From IMG/VR virus record IMGVR_UViG_3300025653_000041, positions 1 to 58,718 of that record: a stretch of 58,718 nt of DNA; one strand, written 5' to 3'. Under the pieces are notes generated by a model. That model was given only the letters and a program-made list of their open reading frames with translations. It did no database searches and was not told the origin of the DNA. A program made the translations under genes and the position numbers. The stretch is from a virus (lineage: Duplodnaviria; Caudoviricetes). Positions 45,264 through 55,742 of the stretch are shown one piece after another (the stretch's first letter is position 1; each line of letters opens with the position of its first letter).

Positions 45264-46157
45264 ATGTCATTCGCTAAATTTATAGGAGAAATTGCAGAGA
45301 ACGGTATTACTACCGCACGTGCAATGTATGGTAGATTAGATAAAGGTGCTACGGATGCACAAAAGAAACGTATTGATGCTGCTAAAGCAAAATTTAAAGA
45401 GCGTCCTAAATCTCGTAGTAAAACACAATCAGAAGGTATGGCTCAAGACCCAATTGCAGGTGATAAAGTAAAAGGTGCGGTAGACGTACAAAAAGGCAAG
45501 GCTGGTAAGGTAACACAGTCACCGGAGCCGGGTTTCTTACAGCAGCAGCGTAGTGAAGGCTCACGAGCAAGGGCAGAAAGAAAAGTAGAAGCATCTCAAA
45601 AGAAACGTACAGGCAAAACTAAAGCTGAACGCGAAAGCGCAGCCAGACGTGAAGAGGAAATGGAAGCAAAAGATGTTCGTGATACTATGAGTGCTAGGGC
45701 TAAAGCATCTGCTACTGCGCGAGGAAAGAAAAGAAAAGAGCCTGATGATTTTGCCACTGCAATTAATCGCAAGACGGGTGAAATTAATGAGGCGGCGTTT
45801 AATCGCCTAACTAAAAATCAACAAGAGTCTCTTATGCGAGACATTCGTGCAAGATTTAGCACGACACGTGCGCGTGAGATTATGGCTCGTATTGATGAAA
45901 TGGAACCTACAAAAGCAGGTGAGTCAGGTGTTCGTAGACGTAGTGGTAGAGCTAGTGACCGTATTGGAGCAGCACCACGTTCAATGCAAGGACCAAATGC
46001 GAGGTCGCCAAAACCTAGTCCTAGTCGCCGTAAAAGTGGTGTAACTGGACGTGGTGGAGAATCCTTTAATAAGGGTGGTATGCCGCGTAAAGGAAGCATC
46101 GACTACCGTAAAGGTGGTATGGTAAAAGCAATACACAACAATAAAAGAGGTGGCTAA
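45264..46157 (+). CDS. K/R-rich hypothetical protein (possible capsid-internal DNA binder)
   Basis: Very basic; C-terminal FNKGG/YRKGG motifs. Confidence 0.6.
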   Translation: MSFAKFIGEIAENGITTARAMYGRLDKGATDAQKKRIDAAKAKFKERPKSRSKTQSEGMAQDPIAGDKVKGAVDVQKGKAGKVTQSPEPGFLQQQRSEGSRARAERKVEASQKKRTGKTKAERESAARREEEMEAKDVRDTMSARAKASATARGKKRKEPDDFATAINRKTGEINEAAFNRLTKNQQESLMRDIRARFSTTRAREIMARIDEMEPTKAGESGVRRRSGRASDRIGAAPRSMQGPNARSPKPSPSRRKSGVTGRGGESFNKGGMPRKGSIDYRKGGMVKAIHNNKRGG

Positions 46158-46159
46158 AT

Positions 46160-46537
46160 ATGTCTATGAAAGAAAAACCAACGCCAGCTTTGAAAGCTAT
46201 GCTAATGAAGAACAGTGGTGCTACTGCTACAGAAGTTCGTGCTGCTATTAAAGAACTTAAAAAGCGTGGAGAGGATACTCCTGCGCCTTCTATGGTTACA
46301 GGTGGCCGTAAACTTAATAAAGGTGGTTCAGTTAAAAAGGATGTTCCTGTACTAGCTATTAGTATTGGAATGGGTAAAATGAAAAAACCCAAAAAGAAAA
46401 CACAAATGGCCTATGGTGGTATGTCAGGTGGCAAGAAGCATATGTATGCAGCAGGTGGTATGGTTAAAGATAACCCCGGCCTAATAGCATTGAAGGCTGA
46501 AAGCCCAGAAGCGTACAAGAAAATCACTGGTAAGTAA
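46160..46537 (+). CDS. basic hypothetical protein with xxxGG motifs
   Basis: LNKGG, MAYGG, YAAGG. Confidence 0.6.
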   Translation: MSMKEKPTPALKAMLMKNSGATATEVRAAIKELKKRGEDTPAPSMVTGGRKLNKGGSVKKDVPVLAISIGMGKMKKPKKKTQMAYGGMSGGKKHMYAAGGMVKDNPGLIALKAESPEAYKKITGK

Positions 46538-47064
46538 TGCACCCTGTTGAACAGGACATACGTAAGTGGTCACATAACTTTCTTGAGATACCGAATGTAA
46601 AGTTAAATGGCCTACCACCCTGTCCATACGCTAAACAGGCATGGGCAGATAACAAAGTCACATTCAGTATCAACACAGGTATTGATGGGCTGTTAGAAGC
46701 TGTACGTGTATTTGATACACATGACTATGACATTGTGGTGTGGGCTAGTGAAGTACTGCCAGACATAAAGTACCTAGATGGCTTTTGTGATGGCATGAAT
46801 GAATTGATGTCAGTCGCTGGCATTGACTTGCACCTTATGGTGTTCCATCCAGACTATAACGCTGAACAAGCTGGTCTGGACTTTCTAATCGAAGATGACA
46901 TCGTAGATGAATCTTTGACATACTGCATGGTATTCGTGCAGAAGCTATCGCTGCTTGACGATGCAGCACTGAGTCTGGAAAAGAGTGGATACTACAAACA
47001 CTTTCCAGAAGATACATTTGAAAGCCTTGTGCTAGAAAGACGGAGATTACGTAATGAAGGGTAA
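46537..47064 (+). CDS. DUF1415-like protein
   Basis: GLPPCPYAK and MVFHPDY motifs. Confidence 0.55.
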   Translation: MHPVEQDIRKWSHNFLEIPNVKLNGLPPCPYAKQAWADNKVTFSINTGIDGLLEAVRVFDTHDYDIVVWASEVLPDIKYLDGFCDGMNELMSVAGIDLHLMVFHPDYNAEQAGLDFLIEDDIVDESLTYCMVFVQKLSLLDDAALSLEKSGYYKHFPEDTFESLVLERRRLRNEG

Positions 47065-47206
47065 AACTAAAATGGCATCAAAGAAGATGATGCGTGGTGG
47101 TGCAGCTACTAAGACAGCACCGAAGCGTATGCGTGGCGGTGGTATGATGAAAGCAGCATCAAAGAAGAAGATGATGCGCGGTGGCATGGCTAAGAAGAAG
47201 AAGTAA
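47054..47206 (+). CDS. 50-aa K/M/G-rich peptide (not in ORF track)
   Basis: MKGKTKMASKKMMRGG...MRGGG...MMRGGMAKKKK; GGAG SD; TAATG coupling. Confidence 0.7.
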   Translation: MKGKTKMASKKMMRGGAATKTAPKRMRGGGMMKAASKKKMMRGGMAKKKK

Positions 47207-47565
47207 TGCCAGTATTACAATCAGGTTCAAAGTTTCGTACTGAAGTTGTGCCGTTGTCTACAACGAACAAGACAACTGTGTACACTGTACCCGCAAACTT
47301 TTCTTCTCACTTAGGAAACTTTTTTGTGAGTAACAATCATACAGGTAACGTGACTTTGAGCCTACACCTTTTTCATGCAGACGATAACACAGAGTATGAC
47401 CTACTGACTGCCCATAATGTTGCAGGTGGTTCGTATGAGTCTATATTTACTAGAAACAATCAGCTATTTTTACATGCGGGTGATATTATAAAATGCACAG
47501 CAGGTACAGCAAGCAAGCTAGTTGTTACTACGTCATGCGAAGAATTTTTTGACCCAGCGAGATAG
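47206..47565 (+). CDS. small beta-sandwich virion protein
   Basis: TTVYTVP...LFLHAGDII; similar to 9786..10112. Confidence 0.55.
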   Translation: MPVLQSGSKFRTEVVPLSTTNKTTVYTVPANFSSHLGNFFVSNNHTGNVTLSLHLFHADDNTEYDLLTAHNVAGGSYESIFTRNNQLFLHAGDIIKCTAGTASKLVVTTSCEEFFDPAR

Positions 47566-47575
47566 GAGACAGGAG

Positions 47576-47857
47576 ATGGTACGTGTCACTAAAAAGCCAG
47601 CCGCTAAAAAGAAAGCCCCATCGGTTGCAGCGAAAAAGAAACCGACTAGAAAGGTTAGCCTTGCGAAAGGCGGTGCGCCACAGAGCAAATCGAGAGTTAA
47701 CGAAGCTGGCAATTATACTAAGCCCGGAATGAGGAAGCAACAATTCAATCGCATTAAAGCTGGCGGTAAAGGCGGCGCACCCGGTCAGTGGTCAGCGCGT
47801 AAAGCCCAGATGCTTGCGTCTGCTTACAAGAAAGCTGGTGGTGGGTATAAGTCGTGA
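47576..47857 (+). CDS. basic conserved phage protein
   Basis: NYTKPGMRK...GGKGGAPGQWSARKAQMLA..YK..GGGY. Confidence 0.65.
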   Translation: MVRVTKKPAAKKKAPSVAAKKKPTRKVSLAKGGAPQSKSRVNEAGNYTKPGMRKQQFNRIKAGGKGGAPGQWSARKAQMLASAYKKAGGGYKS

Positions 47858-48084
47858 CCGCACACGTATTCCTGCTTCTCGTTTATCTGGGAACCGGGGA
47901 TGCACGTAGACTAGAAAGTGGTGATATGTACTTTCGTGATATAAACGAATGTAATTACTTTGCCTCGCGTGTTACTAAACGCTACGGTAACTACCAATAC
48001 AAATATCTAATAGACCCAAAAGATAGAGTAACTGCGTACTGTGTACCCAGATATGTAAACCCAGAGGATGTAAAACTTTATTAA
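47854..48084 (+). CDS. small exported/membrane protein
   Basis: HVFLLLVYLG...MYF..INEC..FA...AYCVP. Confidence 0.55.
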   Translation: MTAHVFLLLVYLGTGDARRLESGDMYFRDINECNYFASRVTKRYGNYQYKYLIDPKDRVTAYCVPRYVNPEDVKLY

Positions 48085-49175
48085 TGCCGCCACGTAATCA
48101 TAAACAATGGACTAAGACCCCCAGCATAGAACACATCAGTTCGCTTATCTATTCTGACTATGACCTATATGAGCAAGAGATTGAAAAGATATTTGCTAAA
48201 GTATGGGTGCCAGTGTGCCACGAGAGTGAACTACCAGAAGTAGGACGTTATCGTACATCACAGATTGCACACAAGAATGTATTGATTGCACATGAGGCTG
48301 ATGGCATCCAAGCCTATCTGTATCACAACCCCGGCATTATGCGAGTGGCAGGTAATCTGTCTGAACTAGATTATGCTGCATGGGATAAGCTACACACAGA
48401 GGTAGCCTACGGTGGGATGGTGTGGACTACACTAGACCGTAATCCTACACAGGGACTTGAGCAGTGGCTAGATGGTGCGTTTGACTGCATTGATGATGCT
48501 ATCAATACTGAACCACTAGAAGTGTTTCACTACCACAAGGCTATTATTGACACGAACTACAAACTGTGGCATGACACTAACAGTGAGTTCTACCATGACT
48601 TCATGCACTACCACAATAGAGTCACAGGATTTAACGATGCATACTTTGCCCGTAAGAACATACCATTCAACAACGGACACGTAAACGTATCTAGCTTCAC
48701 AGTGAACTACGAAGAGTATGAAGGCTTTGAAGACAGAGGTGAGTTATCTTTCCCTAACCTGCCACCAAACCAGTGGTATATGGTTGACCTGTTCCCCGGC
48801 TTTAACTTCAACTTACGTGGCAGTGCGTACCGTAGCGATAGCGTAACCCCACTTGGACCTAACAAGGTACTGATTGAGTTCCGTGGCTACGGCTTGAAGA
48901 GTGACAGCCCAGAAGATAGAGCCACACGTATTGAACACCACAACTCTATCTGGGGGCCGTTTGGTCGTAACCTACACGAAGACTTGATTGGCGTAGCTGG
49001 TCAAGGGACTACAATGCGTACAGGCACAGAGCCACGTAACATCCTGCATGGGCGACACGAAGGCGGCACAATCCACGATGAGGTGGGTATGCGTCACTAC
49101 TACGCTGAGTGGTCTAAGTGGATGGGCGTATCAGCACAGAATCCTGTAGAAGAACTAGCGGAAGAAGCTGCATAG
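48084..49175 (+). CDS. ring-hydroxylating oxygenase alpha-subunit homolog lacking Rieske cluster ligands
   Basis: EIEKIFAKVW.PVCHESELP N-terminus, NYKLWHDTNSEFYHDFMH, LFPGF, HEDL, DEVGMRHYY.EW; no CxH...CxxH. Confidence 0.85.
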   Translation: MPPRNHKQWTKTPSIEHISSLIYSDYDLYEQEIEKIFAKVWVPVCHESELPEVGRYRTSQIAHKNVLIAHEADGIQAYLYHNPGIMRVAGNLSELDYAAWDKLHTEVAYGGMVWTTLDRNPTQGLEQWLDGAFDCIDDAINTEPLEVFHYHKAIIDTNYKLWHDTNSEFYHDFMHYHNRVTGFNDAYFARKNIPFNNGHVNVSSFTVNYEEYEGFEDRGELSFPNLPPNQWYMVDLFPGFNFNLRGSAYRSDSVTPLGPNKVLIEFRGYGLKSDSPEDRATRIEHHNSIWGPFGRNLHEDLIGVAGQGTTMRTGTEPRNILHGRHEGGTIHDEVGMRHYYAEWSKWMGVSAQNPVEELAEEAA

Positions 49176-49883
49176 ATGGACCCTATTAGCGCAATGGCTA
49201 CAGCATCGGCTGCTTTCGGTGCTATCAAAAAGGGGATGCAAGTAGGTCGTGACATTGAGTCTATGGCTGGTGACTTGTCTCGCTGGATGGGTGCGCTAAG
49301 TGATATTGACCAAGCGCAGAAGGAAGCCAAGAACCCACCTATCTTCAAGAAGCTATTTAGTGGCGCAAGCATTGAAGAAGAAGCTATTACTGCTTTTGCT
49401 AACAAAGAAAAGGCAGCAGCACAGCGATACGAACTGCAACAGTGGATTAGCCTGACTATGGGTAGGTCTAAATGGGATGACCTAGTTCGTATGGAAGGTC
49501 AGATACGTAAGCAGCGACAGCAGACTCTATATAGACAGCGTGAACGTAGACAAAAGTTTGTAGAGATTGTGGCATGGATTGTTATGCTTGGACTAGCTGC
49601 AGCAATTCTTTACTCTTTTATTATGTTCCTTATGTCTAAGCAAGCTAGGGCAGACGAGATAAAGTGGACTACATGTAGACTGGTTGCCTATGAAAGAACT
49701 AAGGTAAAAGAAAATCCATACACAGAATATATCTGTACGTATAAAGGCGCAAACAATACAATCGAAACTATAACGATTAGCGAGTTTTGTCCACGGCAGT
49801 ATCAGTGCATTTATAATCCACGTGAAAAAGACGAACCCACACTGAAGGAAACACTGAAGTCAATTAGGGAAAAACTACAATGA
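49176..49883 (+). CDS. membrane-anchored hypothetical protein
   Basis: MDPISAMA coiled-coil N-terminus, one TM helix, Cys-containing C-terminal domain. Confidence 0.6.
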   Translation: MDPISAMATASAAFGAIKKGMQVGRDIESMAGDLSRWMGALSDIDQAQKEAKNPPIFKKLFSGASIEEEAITAFANKEKAAAQRYELQQWISLTMGRSKWDDLVRMEGQIRKQRQQTLYRQRERRQKFVEIVAWIVMLGLAAAILYSFIMFLMSKQARADEIKWTTCRLVAYERTKVKENPYTEYICTYKGANNTIETITISEFCPRQYQCIYNPREKDEPTLKETLKSIREKLQ

Positions 49884-50559: not shown

Positions 50560-50763
50560 GTGGCAGAACTAACAATGGAAAGATTTCTAAAGTGGAAGAT
50601 ACTACCCCGCTTTATGATGCTGATGATGTCAATATCAGCGTGGAGAGTAGTGGAATGGTTCATGCTTCTTCCAGACCCGACAACACAACAGTCAGCACTG
50701 GTGAGTGTAGTCACGGGGGCAATGACAGGTGCATTTGCGGTGTGGCTAGGACATGAGAAATGA
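50560..50763 (+). CDS. 2-TM membrane protein (lysis accessory)
   Basis: WKILPR, two hydrophobic helices, coupled to lysozyme. Confidence 0.55.
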   Translation: MAELTMERFLKWKILPRFMMLMMSISAWRVVEWFMLLPDPTTQQSALVSVVTGAMTGAFAVWLGHEK

Positions 50764-51245
50764 AATATCGTAGAGAAGACTTTATACAGAAACTAATTGC
50801 ACATGAAGGTTTACGCCTTCAGGTATATCAGGATACACTTGGAATTGATACTATTGGTATCGGACGTAACCTAGAAGACCGTGGCATCACTAAAGAAGAA
50901 CTGGAATGGATGGACATACCTAATATGGCTATTGTTCATACTGAAGGTATCACGGAAGCAGATGCTATGTATCTAGCACAGAATGACGTGCAGATTGTCG
51001 AGGAAGAACTTGTACGTGCGCACCCTTGCGTAGACAAGCTAGACAGTGTACGTCAACTTGTACTTATGGATATGGCATTCAATATGGGTGTCCCAAGACT
51101 GTGTAAGTTCGTAAAGATGTGGAATGCTATCCATGAAGGTAAATTTGATATTGCAGCAAAAGAAATGCTTGACAGCAGGTGGGCAATTCAGGTAAAATCA
51201 AGAAGTACAAAATTAGCAAATGCAATGCACAATGGTGAGTTTTAA
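50760..51245 (+). CDS. endolysin, T4-lysozyme-like (GH24)
   Basis: HEGLRLQVYQDTLGIDTIGIG (E-x8-D-x5-T), MAFNMG, DSRW. Confidence 0.9.
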   Translation: MKYRREDFIQKLIAHEGLRLQVYQDTLGIDTIGIGRNLEDRGITKEELEWMDIPNMAIVHTEGITEADAMYLAQNDVQIVEEELVRAHPCVDKLDSVRQLVLMDMAFNMGVPRLCKFVKMWNAIHEGKFDIAAKEMLDSRWAIQVKSRSTKLANAMHNGEF

Positions 51246-51776: not shown

Positions 51777-52158
51777 GTGGAAGCTACCACAACCAACCGA
51801 CATTAAAGAAGAAAACGAATGGGTGCAGATACCTCGCATTGCAAGGACTGTACCTTTCGGTTATAAAAGAAATGATGAAGACCCCGACATTCTTGACCCA
51901 ATACCAACAGAACTTGACCTGCTAGAGAAGGCTAGGTCACACGTAAATCAGTATAGTTATCGTGAAGTAGCCAACTGGCTAAGTACCAATACAGGAAGGT
52001 ACATATCTCACGTAGGTCTAAGGAAACGGTTACAGAATGAACGACAGCGTAAGAACCAAGCTAAAAGCCTCCTCAAGTGGGCAGAGTATGCGGAAACGGC
52101 AATCGCCAAAGCGAAAAGTCTCCAAGAAGAAAGAACAGGCTCCAAAGCCAACGGTTGA
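51757..52158 (+). CDS. DNA-binding protein with recombinase-like HTH domain
   Basis: RTVPFGYK...YSYREVANWLS...ISHVGLRK. Confidence 0.6.
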   Translation: MTRSIGKWKLPQPTDIKEENEWVQIPRIARTVPFGYKRNDEDPDILDPIPTELDLLEKARSHVNQYSYREVANWLSTNTGRYISHVGLRKRLQNERQRKNQAKSLLKWAEYAETAIAKAKSLQEERTGSKANG

Positions 52159-53596
52159 TATACAGCCTATTGAATATGAAACACAAGCTATTGAAGAAAC
52201 AGCTAACGTACTATTCAAGCCTAACCCCGGCCCACAGACTGACTTTCTAGCGGCAGCGGAACGAGAGGTACTATATGGTGGAAGTGCTGGCGGTGGTAAA
52301 TCCTACGCTATGTTATCTGACCCACTACGTTACATGGGGCATCCCGCATTTAGTGGATTGCTACTGCGACATACAACAGAAGAACTAAGAGAACTTGTAT
52401 TTAAGTCGCAGGAGTTGTACCCAAAAATCTGGCCGGGTATCAAATGGTCAGAGAGAAAAATGCAGTGGACTGCACCATCTGGCGCAAGGTTGTGGATGTC
52501 ATATCTTGATAGGGATGATGATGTCTTGCGTTATCAGGGTCTAGCGTTTAGCTGGATAGGGTTTGACGAATTGACTCAGTGGGCCACACCCTACGCTTGG
52601 AATTACATGCGTTCACGTCTACGGTCCACTGCACCTGACTTGCCTATCTTTATGAGAGCCACAACTAACCCCGGAGGAAGAGGTCATCACTGGGTTAAGA
52701 AAATGTTTATTGACCCTTCACCGTATAATAGAGCCTTCGATGCCACAGATAGCGAAACAGGAGAGGTACTGCGATACCCTGCAGGACACGAGAAGGCTGG
52801 AAAGTCTTTATTTAAAAGGCGGTTTATCCCAGCACGATTATCAGACAATCCTTATCTGGCAGAGTCGGGTGACTACGAAGCAATGCTGCTTTCCATGCCA
52901 GAGCAACAAAGACGCCAACTCCTTGAAGGTGATTGGGATATTAAAGAAGGTGCGGCTTTTACGGAATTTGACCGTAATATTCATGTTGTCGAGCCTTTTG
53001 ATATTCCTCACAACTGGGTTAAGTTTCGCGCTTGTGACTACGGTTACGGTAGTAAGTCTGGTGTTATTTGGTTTGCTGTTGCACCTAATGAACAGCTTGT
53101 GGTATATAGAGAACTTTACGTTTCTAAAGTCCTTGCCGCAGACTTGGCAGATATGATACTTGAATTAGAGGCGGGTGATGGAACTATTAAATATGGTGTG
53201 TTGGATAGCAGTCTTTGGCATAAGCGTGGTGATACTGGACCGTCTCTTGCGGAGACTATGATTGCACGAGGATGCCGTTGGCGTCCATCAGATAGAAGCC
53301 GTGGTAGCCGTGTAGCAGGTAAGAACGAAATACACAGGCGTTTGCAGGTAGATGAATTTACAGAGGAGCCTAGACTTGTATTCTTTAATAGCTGCACAAA
53401 TACAATATCGCAGTTACCAGCCATCCCGCTTGATAAGAAAAATCCAGAAGACATTGATACGAATAGTGAAGACCACTTGTATGATGCCTTAAGATATGGT
53501 ATAATGTCCAGACCAAGATTTAGTATATTTGATTATGACCCTATGGGAAGACCAAGTACAGGTATGCGTGTAGCAGACAGCACATTCGGATATTAA
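52037..53596 (+). CDS. terL: terminase large subunit
   Basis: PNPGPQ, YGGSAGGGKS, IGFDEL, TTNPGG, ACDYGY, DHLYDALRY; true start may be downstream. Confidence 0.93.
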   Translation: MNDSVRTKLKASSSGQSMRKRQSPKRKVSKKKEQAPKPTVDIQPIEYETQAIEETANVLFKPNPGPQTDFLAAAEREVLYGGSAGGGKSYAMLSDPLRYMGHPAFSGLLLRHTTEELRELVFKSQELYPKIWPGIKWSERKMQWTAPSGARLWMSYLDRDDDVLRYQGLAFSWIGFDELTQWATPYAWNYMRSRLRSTAPDLPIFMRATTNPGGRGHHWVKKMFIDPSPYNRAFDATDSETGEVLRYPAGHEKAGKSLFKRRFIPARLSDNPYLAESGDYEAMLLSMPEQQRRQLLEGDWDIKEGAAFTEFDRNIHVVEPFDIPHNWVKFRACDYGYGSKSGVIWFAVAPNEQLVVYRELYVSKVLAADLADMILELEAGDGTIKYGVLDSSLWHKRGDTGPSLAETMIARGCRWRPSDRSRGSRVAGKNEIHRRLQVDEFTEEPRLVFFNSCTNTISQLPAIPLDKKNPEDIDTNSEDHLYDALRYGIMSRPRFSIFDYDPMGRPSTGMRVADSTFGY

Positions 53597-53606
53597 GGAA
53601 AACATT

Positions 53607-55742
53607 ATGGCTGAAGAAGAAATTATGATTGAAGACGATGCAATTGCACTAGAAGACACAGATGATTCTGTAGTTGTAGATGCCGATGTATCATCCATCA
53701 TTCCATTTATTTACGAAAGATACCAGCGTTCAGAAGATTATCGTGAACAAGATGAAGACCGCTGGCTACGTGCTTACCGTAACTACCGTGGTCTATATGG
53801 ACCTGATGTACAGTTTACTGAGGCAGAAAAGTCTCGCGTATTTATTAAAGTAACGAAGACAAAGACGCTGGCAGCTTACGGACAGATTGTAGATGTCTTG
53901 TTTGCTAATCAGCGTTTTCCTTTATCTGTAGACCCTACTGAGTTACCAGAAGGCGTGGTAGAAGATGTTAGCTTTGACCCACAGGAACCAGAGCAACTAC
54001 GTGGTGACACAGCACTGTCTACTAGCCCATACGGTTTTGCTGGTGATGGCAACGACTTGGAGCCGGGTGCTACTGCACAGTCACTGCAAGAGAAGCTAGG
54101 CGTAGTACAGAACAAACTAGAGCCAGTGCAGGAGAAACTAAAAGAAGGTCCGGGTAAGACACCTACAGCGATTACATTTAGCCCTGCTATGATTGCTGCT
54201 AAGAAGATGCAAAAGAAGATACACGACCAACTAGAAGAGTCTGGTGCGGGTAAGCATATGCGTAACTCTGCATTTGAGATGGCACTGTTTGGTACAGGTG
54301 TAATGAAAGGCCCGTTTGCTACGGACAAAGAGTATCCTAATTGGGATGATGAAGGTAACTATGACCCACTGTTTAAGACAGTTCCGCAAGTACAGCATGT
54401 ATCAGTTTGGAATTTTTATCCTGACCCTGATGCGAATAACATGGATGAAGCGCAGTACGTAATTGAACGGCACAAGATGTCACGTTCACAACTACGTAGT
54501 CTCAAGAAGCGTCCATACTTCCGTGGTCAAGTAATTGACGAGGTTATTGCTATTGGTGAGAACTACACAAAGAAGTATTGGGAAGATGACCTATCTGACT
54601 ATGCACCTGAGTCTTCTATTGAACGCTTTGAAGTACTTGAGTATTGGGGCATGGTTGATGTCGATATGCTTGAAGAGCAAGACATTACAATACCAGATGA
54701 GTTGCAAGACTTTGACGAACTGCAAGCAAACGTGTGGATATGTAATGGCAAACTTATTCGTATGGTTCTTAATCCATTCAAGCCTAGCAAGATTCCATAC
54801 CATGCTGCGCCATACGAACTGAACCCGTACTCTTTCTTTGGAGTGGGTATTGCAGAAAACATGGACGATACACAAACTCTTATGAATGGGTTTATGCGTA
54901 TGGCTGTCGATAACGCTGTCCTATCGGGTAACTTGATTATGGAACTAGATGAAACTAATCTAGTGCCGGGTCAGGACTTGTCACTATATCCGGGCAAGGT
55001 ATTCCGTAGACAAGGTGGTGCGCCGGGTCAAGCTATCTTTGGAACTAAGTTTCCAAATGTATCATCAGAGAATATGATGCTGTTTGACAAAGCACGTCAG
55101 TTATCAGACGAAAGCACAGGTATGCCTAGCTTTGCTCATGGGCAAACAGGGGTATCTGGTGTAGGCCGTACTGCATCCGGCATATCAATGCTTATGGGTG
55201 CTGCCAGTGGTGGTATCAAAACTGTTGTAAAGAATGTGGATGATTATCTTCTACGCCCATTAGGCGAAGGTTTCTTCCGTTTTAATATGCAGTTTGACTT
55301 TGACCCTGAAATTAAAGGCGACCTAGAAGTTAAGGCACGTGGAACTGAAAGTCTTATGGCTAACGAAGTACGTAGTCAGCGTTTGATGCAGTTCCTGCAA
55401 GTAGCAAGTAGCCCAGCACTTGCACCTTTTGCTAAGTTCCAATATGTAATCCGTGAGATTGCATCATCACTGGACTTAGACCCCGACAAAGTAACCAACA
55501 ATATGGATGAAGCTGCTCTGCAAGCAGAGATTATGAAAGGCTTCCAAGCACCTGCACAACCAGAACAAGGCATGGCTACTGGTAGTCCAATGGACCCAAC
55601 TGGCGCAGGTGGTGGTAATATAGGCACAGGACAAGTACCTGTACCGGGTGAACAAGGATTTAGTGCAAATGGACAAGAAGCAAATACTCAGCAGCCTCAA
55701 GCCGTTGGTGGGCAACAACCACCAATGGGAGGCATTCAATAA
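53607..55742 (+). CDS. portal protein
   Basis: 711 aa after terL; FGTGVMK, FYPDP, FFGVG, AVLSGN motifs. Confidence 0.88.
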   Translation: MAEEEIMIEDDAIALEDTDDSVVVDADVSSIIPFIYERYQRSEDYREQDEDRWLRAYRNYRGLYGPDVQFTEAEKSRVFIKVTKTKTLAAYGQIVDVLFANQRFPLSVDPTELPEGVVEDVSFDPQEPEQLRGDTALSTSPYGFAGDGNDLEPGATAQSLQEKLGVVQNKLEPVQEKLKEGPGKTPTAITFSPAMIAAKKMQKKIHDQLEESGAGKHMRNSAFEMALFGTGVMKGPFATDKEYPNWDDEGNYDPLFKTVPQVQHVSVWNFYPDPDANNMDEAQYVIERHKMSRSQLRSLKKRPYFRGQVIDEVIAIGENYTKKYWEDDLSDYAPESSIERFEVLEYWGMVDVDMLEEQDITIPDELQDFDELQANVWICNGKLIRMVLNPFKPSKIPYHAAPYELNPYSFFGVGIAENMDDTQTLMNGFMRMAVDNAVLSGNLIMELDETNLVPGQDLSLYPGKVFRRQGGAPGQAIFGTKFPNVSSENMMLFDKARQLSDESTGMPSFAHGQTGVSGVGRTASGISMLMGAASGGIKTVVKNVDDYLLRPLGEGFFRFNMQFDFDPEIKGDLEVKARGTESLMANEVRSQRLMQFLQVASSPALAPFAKFQYVIREIASSLDLDPDKVTNNMDEAALQAEIMKGFQAPAQPEQGMATGSPMDPTGAGGGNIGTGQVPVPGEQGFSANGQEANTQQPQAVGGQQPPMGGIQ

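Follow-up and report, generated by a model that had tools for sequence, protein, structure and literature searches.

How a phage-encoded oxygenase alpha subunit could function without a Rieske cluster is the question raised by an open reading frame (ORF) at positions 48084..49175 (+ strand) of IMG/VR virus record IMGVR_UViG_3300025653_000041. We analysed all 58,718 bases of this DNA, hereafter the window, which is a complete virus record and a relative of the Puniceispirillum (SAR116) phage HMO-2011, with 86% nucleotide identity over 66% of the 18.7 kb queried. The ORF has an ATG start, runs for 363 amino acids with no internal stop, and encodes a Rieske-less, MsmA-like catalytic alpha subunit which we refer to as alphaC. 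Its ortholog in HMO-2011 (NC_021864) is gp61, which is annotated 'methanesulfonate monooxygenase', has 93% amino acid identity to the window ORF and occupies the same place in a syntenic block, although the two are separate phage genomes (55,282 bases in HMO-2011 versus 58,718 in the window). The answer that we modestly favour is that the ORF is a phage copy of a catalytic alpha subunit that has no cluster and belongs to a split, SAR116-type methanesulfonate monooxygenase, where it would be paired with a host-encoded and Rieske-bearing paralog, which we refer to as alphaR. The missing cluster would then probably represent labour divided with the host, and not a defect.

The missing cluster site is not in itself a new observation, because it is already in print for the HMO-2011 protein, which the original prediction did not recognise as the counterpart of this gene. 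The available text of Henriques and De Marco (2015, PMC4433239) describes the CXH-Xn-CXXH motif as missing from this protein and also from many ocean-survey and virome sequences annotated as MsmA, and it further reports that the host strain has two MsmA-annotated proteins, with the motif in only one of them. The accessible part of a review (PMC4928673) repeats the idea that the protein is a putative MsmA which starts methanesulfonate oxidation. Within the portions of the literature that our search covered we found no explanation of how the HMO-2011 protein would work without a cluster, and no description of an alphaR partner or of complementary decay of paralogs. What is new here is a likely explanation, namely a host-side partner, alphaR, together with the complementary decay of two paralogs.

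Using Pfam we detected PF00848 at residues 145-348 of the ORF (E 7.3e-7; 29.7 bits versus a cut-off of 24.9) and no match in the ORF to PF00355 (Rieske), while a six-frame search of the whole genome for the Rieske domain gave at best 11.9 bits, inside this same ORF (model positions 2-34), versus a cut-off of 20.3. The N-terminal segment (residues 1-75; 48084..48308, +) keeps the first Rieske-fold strands and includes VWVPVCHESELP, with the motif IFAKVWVPVCHESELP read at residues 36-51, and solved alpha subunits align with residues 21-80, corresponding to the start of their Rieske domains, and then weakly to the C-terminus (phmmer against the PDB). The cluster loops (CXH-X26-CXXH) are replaced by a hypervariable linker at residues 76-108 (48309..48407, +) which contains zero Cys, and this is followed by GGMVWTTLD at residues 110-118. 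Across 23 homologs the linker is rich in insertions and deletions and variable, and the catalytic part holds the invariant columns. In a 92-row alignment, which covered long MsmA forms, alphaR and short forms such as alphaC, the window protein has lost cluster ligands 3 and 4 altogether and has other residues in place of ligands 1 and 2; the MsmA signature proposed in PMC4433239, CXH-X26-CXXH, is thereby absent from alphaC and present in 58/58 long forms and 10/10 alphaR. This confirms the central claim of the original prediction, made from the letters of the window, that the phage encodes an alpha subunit without CxH...CxxH and with its iron-site residues intact.

The catalytic domain (residues 109-345; 48408..49118, +) is nearly invariant in the family and is delineated by Pfam, alignment, substitution rates and Foldseek. 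It contains EFYHDFMH at residues 168-175 (48585..48608, +), with E168 as the putative bridging carboxylate and H171 and H175 as putative iron ligands, and HEDL at residues 298-301 (48975..48986, +), with D300 as the putative carboxylate ligand. In an alignment made with the family profile (E 2.8e-53), E168, H171, H175 and D300 correspond to D207, H210, H215 and D356 of the terephthalate dioxygenase chain 7vju_A, which we take to be that enzyme's bridging aspartate (D207) and its three iron ligands (H210, H215 and D356). From its sequence, alphaC is thus predicted to have an alpha-subunit catalytic domain and a 2-His-1-carboxylate set with its bridging carboxylate; that this set is kept, as had also been proposed, is upheld by the alignment, in which it is invariant in both long and short forms.

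Structure prediction gave a consistent picture. The AlphaFold2 model of alphaC, built from a 45-row alignment, has a mean predicted local distance difference test (pLDDT) score of 87.7 and a predicted template modelling score of 0.88, with strands at residues 42-116 followed by a helix-grip catalytic domain; the strands at 42-46, 55-61, 64-71 and 74-79 have pLDDT > 90, and the linker has a pLDDT of 78-80. Foldseek returned 159 PDB chains at E <= 0.001, with the top matches all Rieske-oxygenase alpha subunits (E down to 9e-21), including salicylate 5-hydroxylase, terephthalate dioxygenase, CntA, stachydrine demethylase and biphenyl/naphthalene dioxygenases, at query-normalised template modelling scores of 0.72-0.75 and 13-19% identity.

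We then asked how widely this architecture is held among phages. Relatives occur on at least 595 contigs of IMG/VR, of which 80 loci with 79 full-length proteins were kept; none of the full-length copies has CxH..CxxH (0/79) and all keep EFYHDFMH and LHEDL (79/79), and 78/80 viral loci have at least two further window genes in common. The ratio of nonsynonymous to synonymous substitution rates (dN/dS) was estimated by the Nei-Gojobori method on the 80 coding sequences, using 1,010 pairs at 80-97% amino acid identity. Its median was 0.054 for the whole gene, 0.112 for residues 1-75, 0.305 for the linker at 76-108, the highest of the gene, and 0.025 for the catalytic domain at 109-345, all rough values, with 370-475 usable pairs with unsaturated dS per region. 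For the window gene against a record of HMO-2011 length, dN was 0.052 and dS 0.673. These values point to strong purifying selection on the phage gene. A decaying pseudogene or an assembly artefact, for which only the missing motif speaks and which had been named as outcomes to check for, can in effect be dismissed because the frame is intact, the architecture is common to 79/79 independent viral contigs and 21 genome loci, and dN/dS is ~0.05. As a phage-borne homolog of a host metabolic gene that is conserved across a phage group, alphaC is a candidate auxiliary metabolic gene.

No partner genes accompany it. Profile searches of the window genome detected no match to PF00866 (beta subunit), PF00111 (Fer2) or PF07992 (Pyr_redox_2) at E <= 0.1, extending genome-wide what had been claimed for the neighbourhood of the gene, that it has no ferredoxin, reductase or beta subunit nearby. 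In 83 phage records (708,559 bases) we likewise found no homolog of the host beta subunit, of the host ferredoxin or of a ~276-amino acid protein from the cellular operon described below, and a search of the same records with alphaR matched solely the msmA-like ORF. Some tblastn matches of alphaR in the phage loci continued past residue 390 and were considered as candidate reductase genes; these were rejected as run-ons from the msmA-like ORF.

A scan of prokaryotes, with one genome per species, returned 173 relatives of the phage protein, and the best 80 were kept. These comprised 58 long forms (~1,200-1,240 nucleotides matched, 55-60% identity) and 22 short forms (~1,035-1,085 nucleotides matched, 70-77% identity), and over all searches the cellular copies of the short form were 70-78% identical to the phage protein; one short-form locus, L004, was the only one among these best 80 of 173 to have many other genes in common with the phage. 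One operon type is common to 17 short-form loci, 12/17 of which come from SAR116- or Puniceispirillum-named genomes. It starts with an MsmE-like binding protein gene on the opposite strand, followed by genes for an ~800-amino acid alphaR-reductase protein, a Ring_hydroxyl_B beta subunit and a 133-amino acid Rieske ferredoxin, continues with dmsABC-like genes in some genomes and a gene for the ~276-amino acid protein of no known family, and then reaches the short form itself. Beyond this lie a LysR gene (opposite strand), the sulfite exporter gene TauE, a PanB-like gene and a gene for formate-tetrahydrofolate ligase (FTHFS). SAR116-type cells therefore have the short form as a gene of their own, within an msm-like operon, and reading the original prediction as a phage-specific deletion is wrong. 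The dmsABC genes, which are dimethyl sulfoxide reductase-like (Molybdopterin, Fer4_11, DmsC) and found at L173:6912-11499 and also at L174 and L175, are inserted between the Rieske ferredoxin gene and that of the 276-amino acid protein, and an msmA-dmsABC neighbourhood is mentioned in the available text of PMC8547437.

This operon bears on how the phage protein could act on the host enzyme. One suggestion, contained in the earlier proposal of a subunit that mixes into and alters host trimers, is that it is a dominant-negative or modulating subunit which shuts down or redirects host oxygenase rings, and its missing cluster and the lack of partner genes in the phage would suit such a role. However, the host operon encodes the same short subunit, and a poison would need neither iron-site retention in 79/79 copies nor a catalytic-domain dN/dS of 0.025, making this highly improbable. 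That the protein joins a host oxygenase is probably correct in a constructive sense, as a working subunit, and this is the reading we favour.

The ~800-amino acid operon protein consists of an MsmA-like N-terminal part with a Rieske domain, followed by Pyr_redox_2 and Reductase_C domains (FAD/NAD ferredoxin reductase). The alpha part, which shows 32% identity to the phage protein, has an intact CPHRG...CMFHAW, is without EFYHDFMH, and has the NLHEDL segment missing. In the 92-row alignment all 58 rows of long MsmA have the four cluster ligands (C,H,C,H; 58/58) as well as D164, E168, H171, H175, H298, E299 and D300 (58/58). The 10 alphaR rows keep C,H,C,H (10/10), with H171 absent (gapped in nine and Gln in one), H175 changed to Q, N, K or E, and H298-E299-D300 deleted (10/10), while the 21 cellular and three phage rows of the short form all have ligands 3 and 4 deleted and all iron-site residues kept. 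Six more distinct alphaR from other genomes showed the identical pattern, for example with KFHQDFMK replacing EFYHDFMH; the nine rows added in this second alphaR alignment included duplicates of L005 and L171 and one long form with intact motifs. Complementary loss was therefore seen in every protein examined, that is in 16/16 alphaR and 103/103 short forms. Furthermore, the cluster segment of alphaR is almost invariant and its former catalytic part has few invariant positions, a mirror image of the short form.

In 15/16 distinct alphaR the alpha part is fused to the reductase in a frame of 787-857 amino acids (e.g. L173:3157-5550). The fusion is not universal, because in the SAR116 single-cell genome G003 (L171/L167; G003:C5:71188-73571) alphaR and the reductase are two adjacent ORFs of 341 and 491 amino acids. 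At L006 and L010, one of which belongs to G003, alphaR is not adjacent to the short form and lies 11-12 kb away in the same genome, and L012 and L016, of the 17 cellular loci, end at contig edges with the alphaR region outside. Among 151 genomes sampled from the order of G001, seven had a match; the short form was present in six of these, with alphaR in 6/6, and the seventh (G005) had a long form only. No second MsmA-like ORF was seen in the flanks of the 58 long-form loci.

These observations also speak to the two remaining roles that had been put forward, a repurposed mononuclear-iron enzyme and an iron- or ligand-binding protein, which we considered as a cluster-independent enzyme with a new reaction and as a non-redox member of the wider Bet v1-like fold group. 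The absence of the cluster site is in keeping with either, and the catalytic-domain fold serves ligand-binding proteins elsewhere. Nevertheless, genuine long MsmA has nearly the same active-site region, E168 is invariant, the operon holds sulfite-exporter and one-carbon genes, and the cluster-carrying paralog co-occurs in 6/6 genomes. Because the host encodes a dedicated Rieske-carrying partner with a dead active site, a cluster-independent function is unlikely, and we consider that there is very little chance of either role being correct.

Electron transfer in Rieske oxygenases runs between neighbouring alpha subunits, from the cluster of one through the bridging carboxylate to the iron of the next, and therefore a mixed alphaR/alphaC assembly, together with the beta subunit and the small Rieske ferredoxin, could work. 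The ancestral function of MsmA would here have been divided over two paralogs, with alphaR as cluster carrier and alphaC as catalytic subunit, and electrons may flow from NADH through the reductase domain, possibly by way of the free Rieske ferredoxin, to the alphaR cluster and on to the alphaC iron. The phage would make a spare catalytic subunit that takes electrons from host alphaR, and since it supplies alphaC only, infected cells would contain an active enzyme of mixed phage and host origin, which would probably serve to maintain or raise the oxidation of methanesulfonate to sulfite and formaldehyde. Methanesulfonate is the most likely substrate, given that the phage protein is 57% identical to MsmA and almost the same in the active-site region, and that the cellular operon includes sulfite-exporter and one-carbon genes. 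The benefit to the phage is a matter of speculation, and could lie in more sulfite or formaldehyde, for energy or one-carbon supply, or in replacing a worn-out subunit. For the whole of this picture, in which the SAR116 enzyme is naturally split, an abundant type of ocean phage carries its catalytic half and infected cells run a chimeric oxygenase, we put the chances at just short of even.

We examined whether the two proteins are compatible by modelling a complex of residues 1-375 of alphaR from G025 (13-row alignment) with phage alphaC (22-row alignment). The pair scored 0.81, with the best of three controls at 0.00; the mark applied to this score, which is reached by 58/80 solved complexes and 2/110 mismatched pairs, is rough since our own alignments were used. 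Runs shared at least 82% of contacts and pLDDT was at least 85 in the partners. The confident interface brings the two cluster motifs of alphaR (residues 83-92 and 116-119), along with its residues 132-151, against the iron-site helix of the phage protein (170-174) and its residues 164 and 302-332, and corresponds to the head-to-tail alpha-alpha contact of solved alpha3 rings. As such rings are among the solved structures, the pass may come from likeness to them, and the model shows compatibility of the pair with an alpha3-type contact, not binding.

The model also enters the choice between electron donors. It may be that alphaC is catalytic and receives electrons from the free Rieske ferredoxin, or from another host carrier, docking at the site of the lost loops, with alphaR having a structural or regulatory role. 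In favour of this, the 133-amino acid Rieske ferredoxin is kept in the SAR116-type operon though the reductase is fused to alphaR, and the same kind of ferredoxin occurs in the canonical operon of Filomicrobium. However, the cluster segment of alphaR is near-invariant in an alpha part that is otherwise decayed, suggesting that alphaR is kept for its cluster; E168, which aligns with the carboxylate facing the neighbour's cluster, is invariant; and the complex model, with its caveat of likeness to solved rings, sets the cluster loops of alphaR on the iron site of alphaC. We therefore regard direct donation by the ferredoxin as unlikely, and prefer alphaR as the cluster that would serve alphaC.

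Where the short form arose is a separate matter. We built a tree of 85 rows and 355 columns by a quick IQ-TREE search under LG+G4, comprising 20/58 long forms (every third), 10 alphaR, 21 cellular short forms, 30 phage copies (including 27/79 viral sequences, every third) and four distant outgroups. All short forms (51/51) constitute one clade (support 100) inside long MsmA, and alphaR is a single fast-evolving clade (support 99) whose position in the tree is not fixed. Nested in phage diversity, through three starred branches, is a clade (support 95) made up of the 17 SAR116-type cellular copies. This maximum-likelihood topology favours an alternative on origin, though not on mechanism, in which phages captured a long msmA and turned it into the Rieske-less form, whose product joined the ordinary MsmA of their hosts in mixed rings; SAR116 cells would later have acquired this form from a phage, and their own MsmA would then have decayed into alphaR. 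On the other hand, the approximately unbiased test does not reject a grouping of all 30 phage rows (p 0.288; log-likelihood difference 25.3), and the root of the short clade is on a long branch (0.47) in a quick LG+G4 search. In addition, a CP[S/Q/L] relic of CPH is found in 16/17 cellular and 0/82 phage copies, which is simplest to understand if the cellular copies are nearer the ancestor. Tree and relic character thus disagree on whether phage or cell came first, and we see a phage-first origin as a credible minority view; joined to the split-enzyme picture it would give a bolder one, in which phages invented the cluster-less subunit and their hosts took it over afterwards.

Several points tell against a split enzyme completed by host alphaR. 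Four short forms, in bins titled Rickettsiales, Verrucomicrobiales, Hellea and Legionellales (L018, L020, L022 and L058), lie outside the SAR116 operon, have flanks that are neither of that type nor clearly HMO-2011-like, and are without the CP relic. In one of these four genomes, G004, no alphaR was seen, and such odd-context carriers may lack the proposed partner, or their contigs may be other phages or mis-binned. The spacing of the putative iron ligands is H-x3-H in alphaC and H-x4-H, with one extra residue, in solved relatives. The free Rieske ferredoxin, kept in the cellular operon, could be the direct donor instead of alphaR, and the nesting of cellular within phage copies, if true, would mean that the short form first worked in phages whose hosts had an ordinary MsmA. 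The alphaR that was modelled is from G025, a genome standing in for that of the actual host, and for every short form and alphaR the activity, substrate and partner are deduced from sequence, models and genomic context. Finally, the motif with the 26-residue spacer is present in MsmA of all proven methanesulfonate growers, according to the available text of PMC4433239.

Comparison with known systems places alphaC nearest to MsmA. The long MsmA homolog of Filomicrobium insigne (L035) is 57% identical to the phage protein, with an almost identical active-site region (EVFHYHKAI..TNYKLWHDTNSEFYHDFMHYHNRVTGFNDAYFARKN), and the 49 gap columns of their alignment fall on CPH-X26-CMFH and the loop after it; its locus holds the canonical set of an alpha subunit with both Rieske and catalytic parts, a beta subunit, a Rieske ferredoxin, a Fer2/FAD/NAD reductase and TauE. 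Cellular alphaC likewise has TauE and genes for a beta subunit, a Rieske ferredoxin and an MsmE-like binding protein beside it. However, it would pair with an active-site-dead MsmA paralog fused to a reductase of the glutathione-reductase type, in place of the Fer2/FAD/NAD reductase MsmD, and whereas the MsmA family is encoded with msmB, msmC and msmD, phage alphaC stands alone.

A second parallel is the NdmCDE system of Pseudomonas putida CBB5 in which, as described in the available text of PMC4408171, the oxygenase NdmC has non-heme iron and no Rieske cluster, an extra cluster is found on the reductase NdmD, and the glutathione S-transferase (GST)-like NdmE is required. The gene arrangement on the host side suggests a similar layout, with alphaC lacking a cluster and the cluster residing on an alphaR that is usually fused to a reductase. 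The two nevertheless differ, in that in the SAR116-type system a whole decayed alpha paralog carries the cluster, the reductase belongs to a different type, the enzyme retains a beta subunit as well as a free Rieske ferredoxin, the conserved neighbour has no GST signature, and a phage copy exists. This neighbour, the protein of 274-279 amino acids, is always encoded just upstream of the cellular short form (e.g. L173:11555-12382 and L015:6921-7742) and had no Pfam or NCBIfam match, and no match to GST families in Pfam; its sole lead in the Atlas was DUF5996, at 29% of a look-alike cluster. The protein may act as an NdmE-like adaptor. NdmA and NdmB chains match the alphaC family profile only at E ~2e-10 and over the Rieske part, and because this match is so limited, the NdmCDE and SAR116-type splits appear to be of independent origin. 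If so, the SAR116-type enzyme would be a second, independently evolved Rieske oxygenase with its cluster and active site on different polypeptides, and, as a split enzyme formed from two decayed copies of the same subunit, it would provide a clean natural test of inter-subunit electron transfer.

Among phage genes the closest precedent is cyanophage psbA, an auxiliary gene that replaces one subunit of a host complex. In both cases a single conserved catalytic subunit of a host redox complex is carried by an abundant marine phage, with its partners left to the host; they differ in enzyme and pathway, and the alphaC case is known here from sequence. There are practical consequences for surveys. 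Virome studies count the gene as a sulfur-cycle 'MsmA' auxiliary gene though the feature that defines MsmA is absent, and surveys by CXH-X26-CXXH would detect alphaR, which has no iron ligands, in SAR116 and miss the active-site subunit. Whether HMO-2011-type phages affect methanesulfonate turnover depends on the activity of alphaC.

The ORFs directly flanking alphaC in the window have no known function, and the alphaC protein itself had no significant family in PHROGs (best E 0.062). Upstream, positions 45264-47857 (+) contain small Lys/Arg/Gly-rich ORFs of 297, 125, 50 and 111 amino acids with repeated 'KGGM'- or 'MMRGG'-like motifs, and the two of these four that were scanned (297 and 125 amino acids) had no PHROG family match. 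Predicted promoters and terminators around the gene numbered six and two, against 4.9 and 2.2 expected. Contigs of 227-348 bases from RNA libraries (X3 and X4 from one study, X11 from another) were ~93-97% alike over parts of 48843-49246, with DNA carry-over possible, and one further run (X1) is probably DNA. The ORF adjoining alphaC downstream (49176-49883, +) encodes 235 amino acids, its HMO-2011 counterpart gp60 is annotated as 456 nucleotides (~151 amino acids), and in the window ORF only residues 1-152 match phrog_32327. Further downstream are an endolysin (50760-51245), the terminase (52037-53596) and an adaptor/portal gene (53607-55742), so that the placing of alphaC among late and lysis genes in the original prediction was roughly right.

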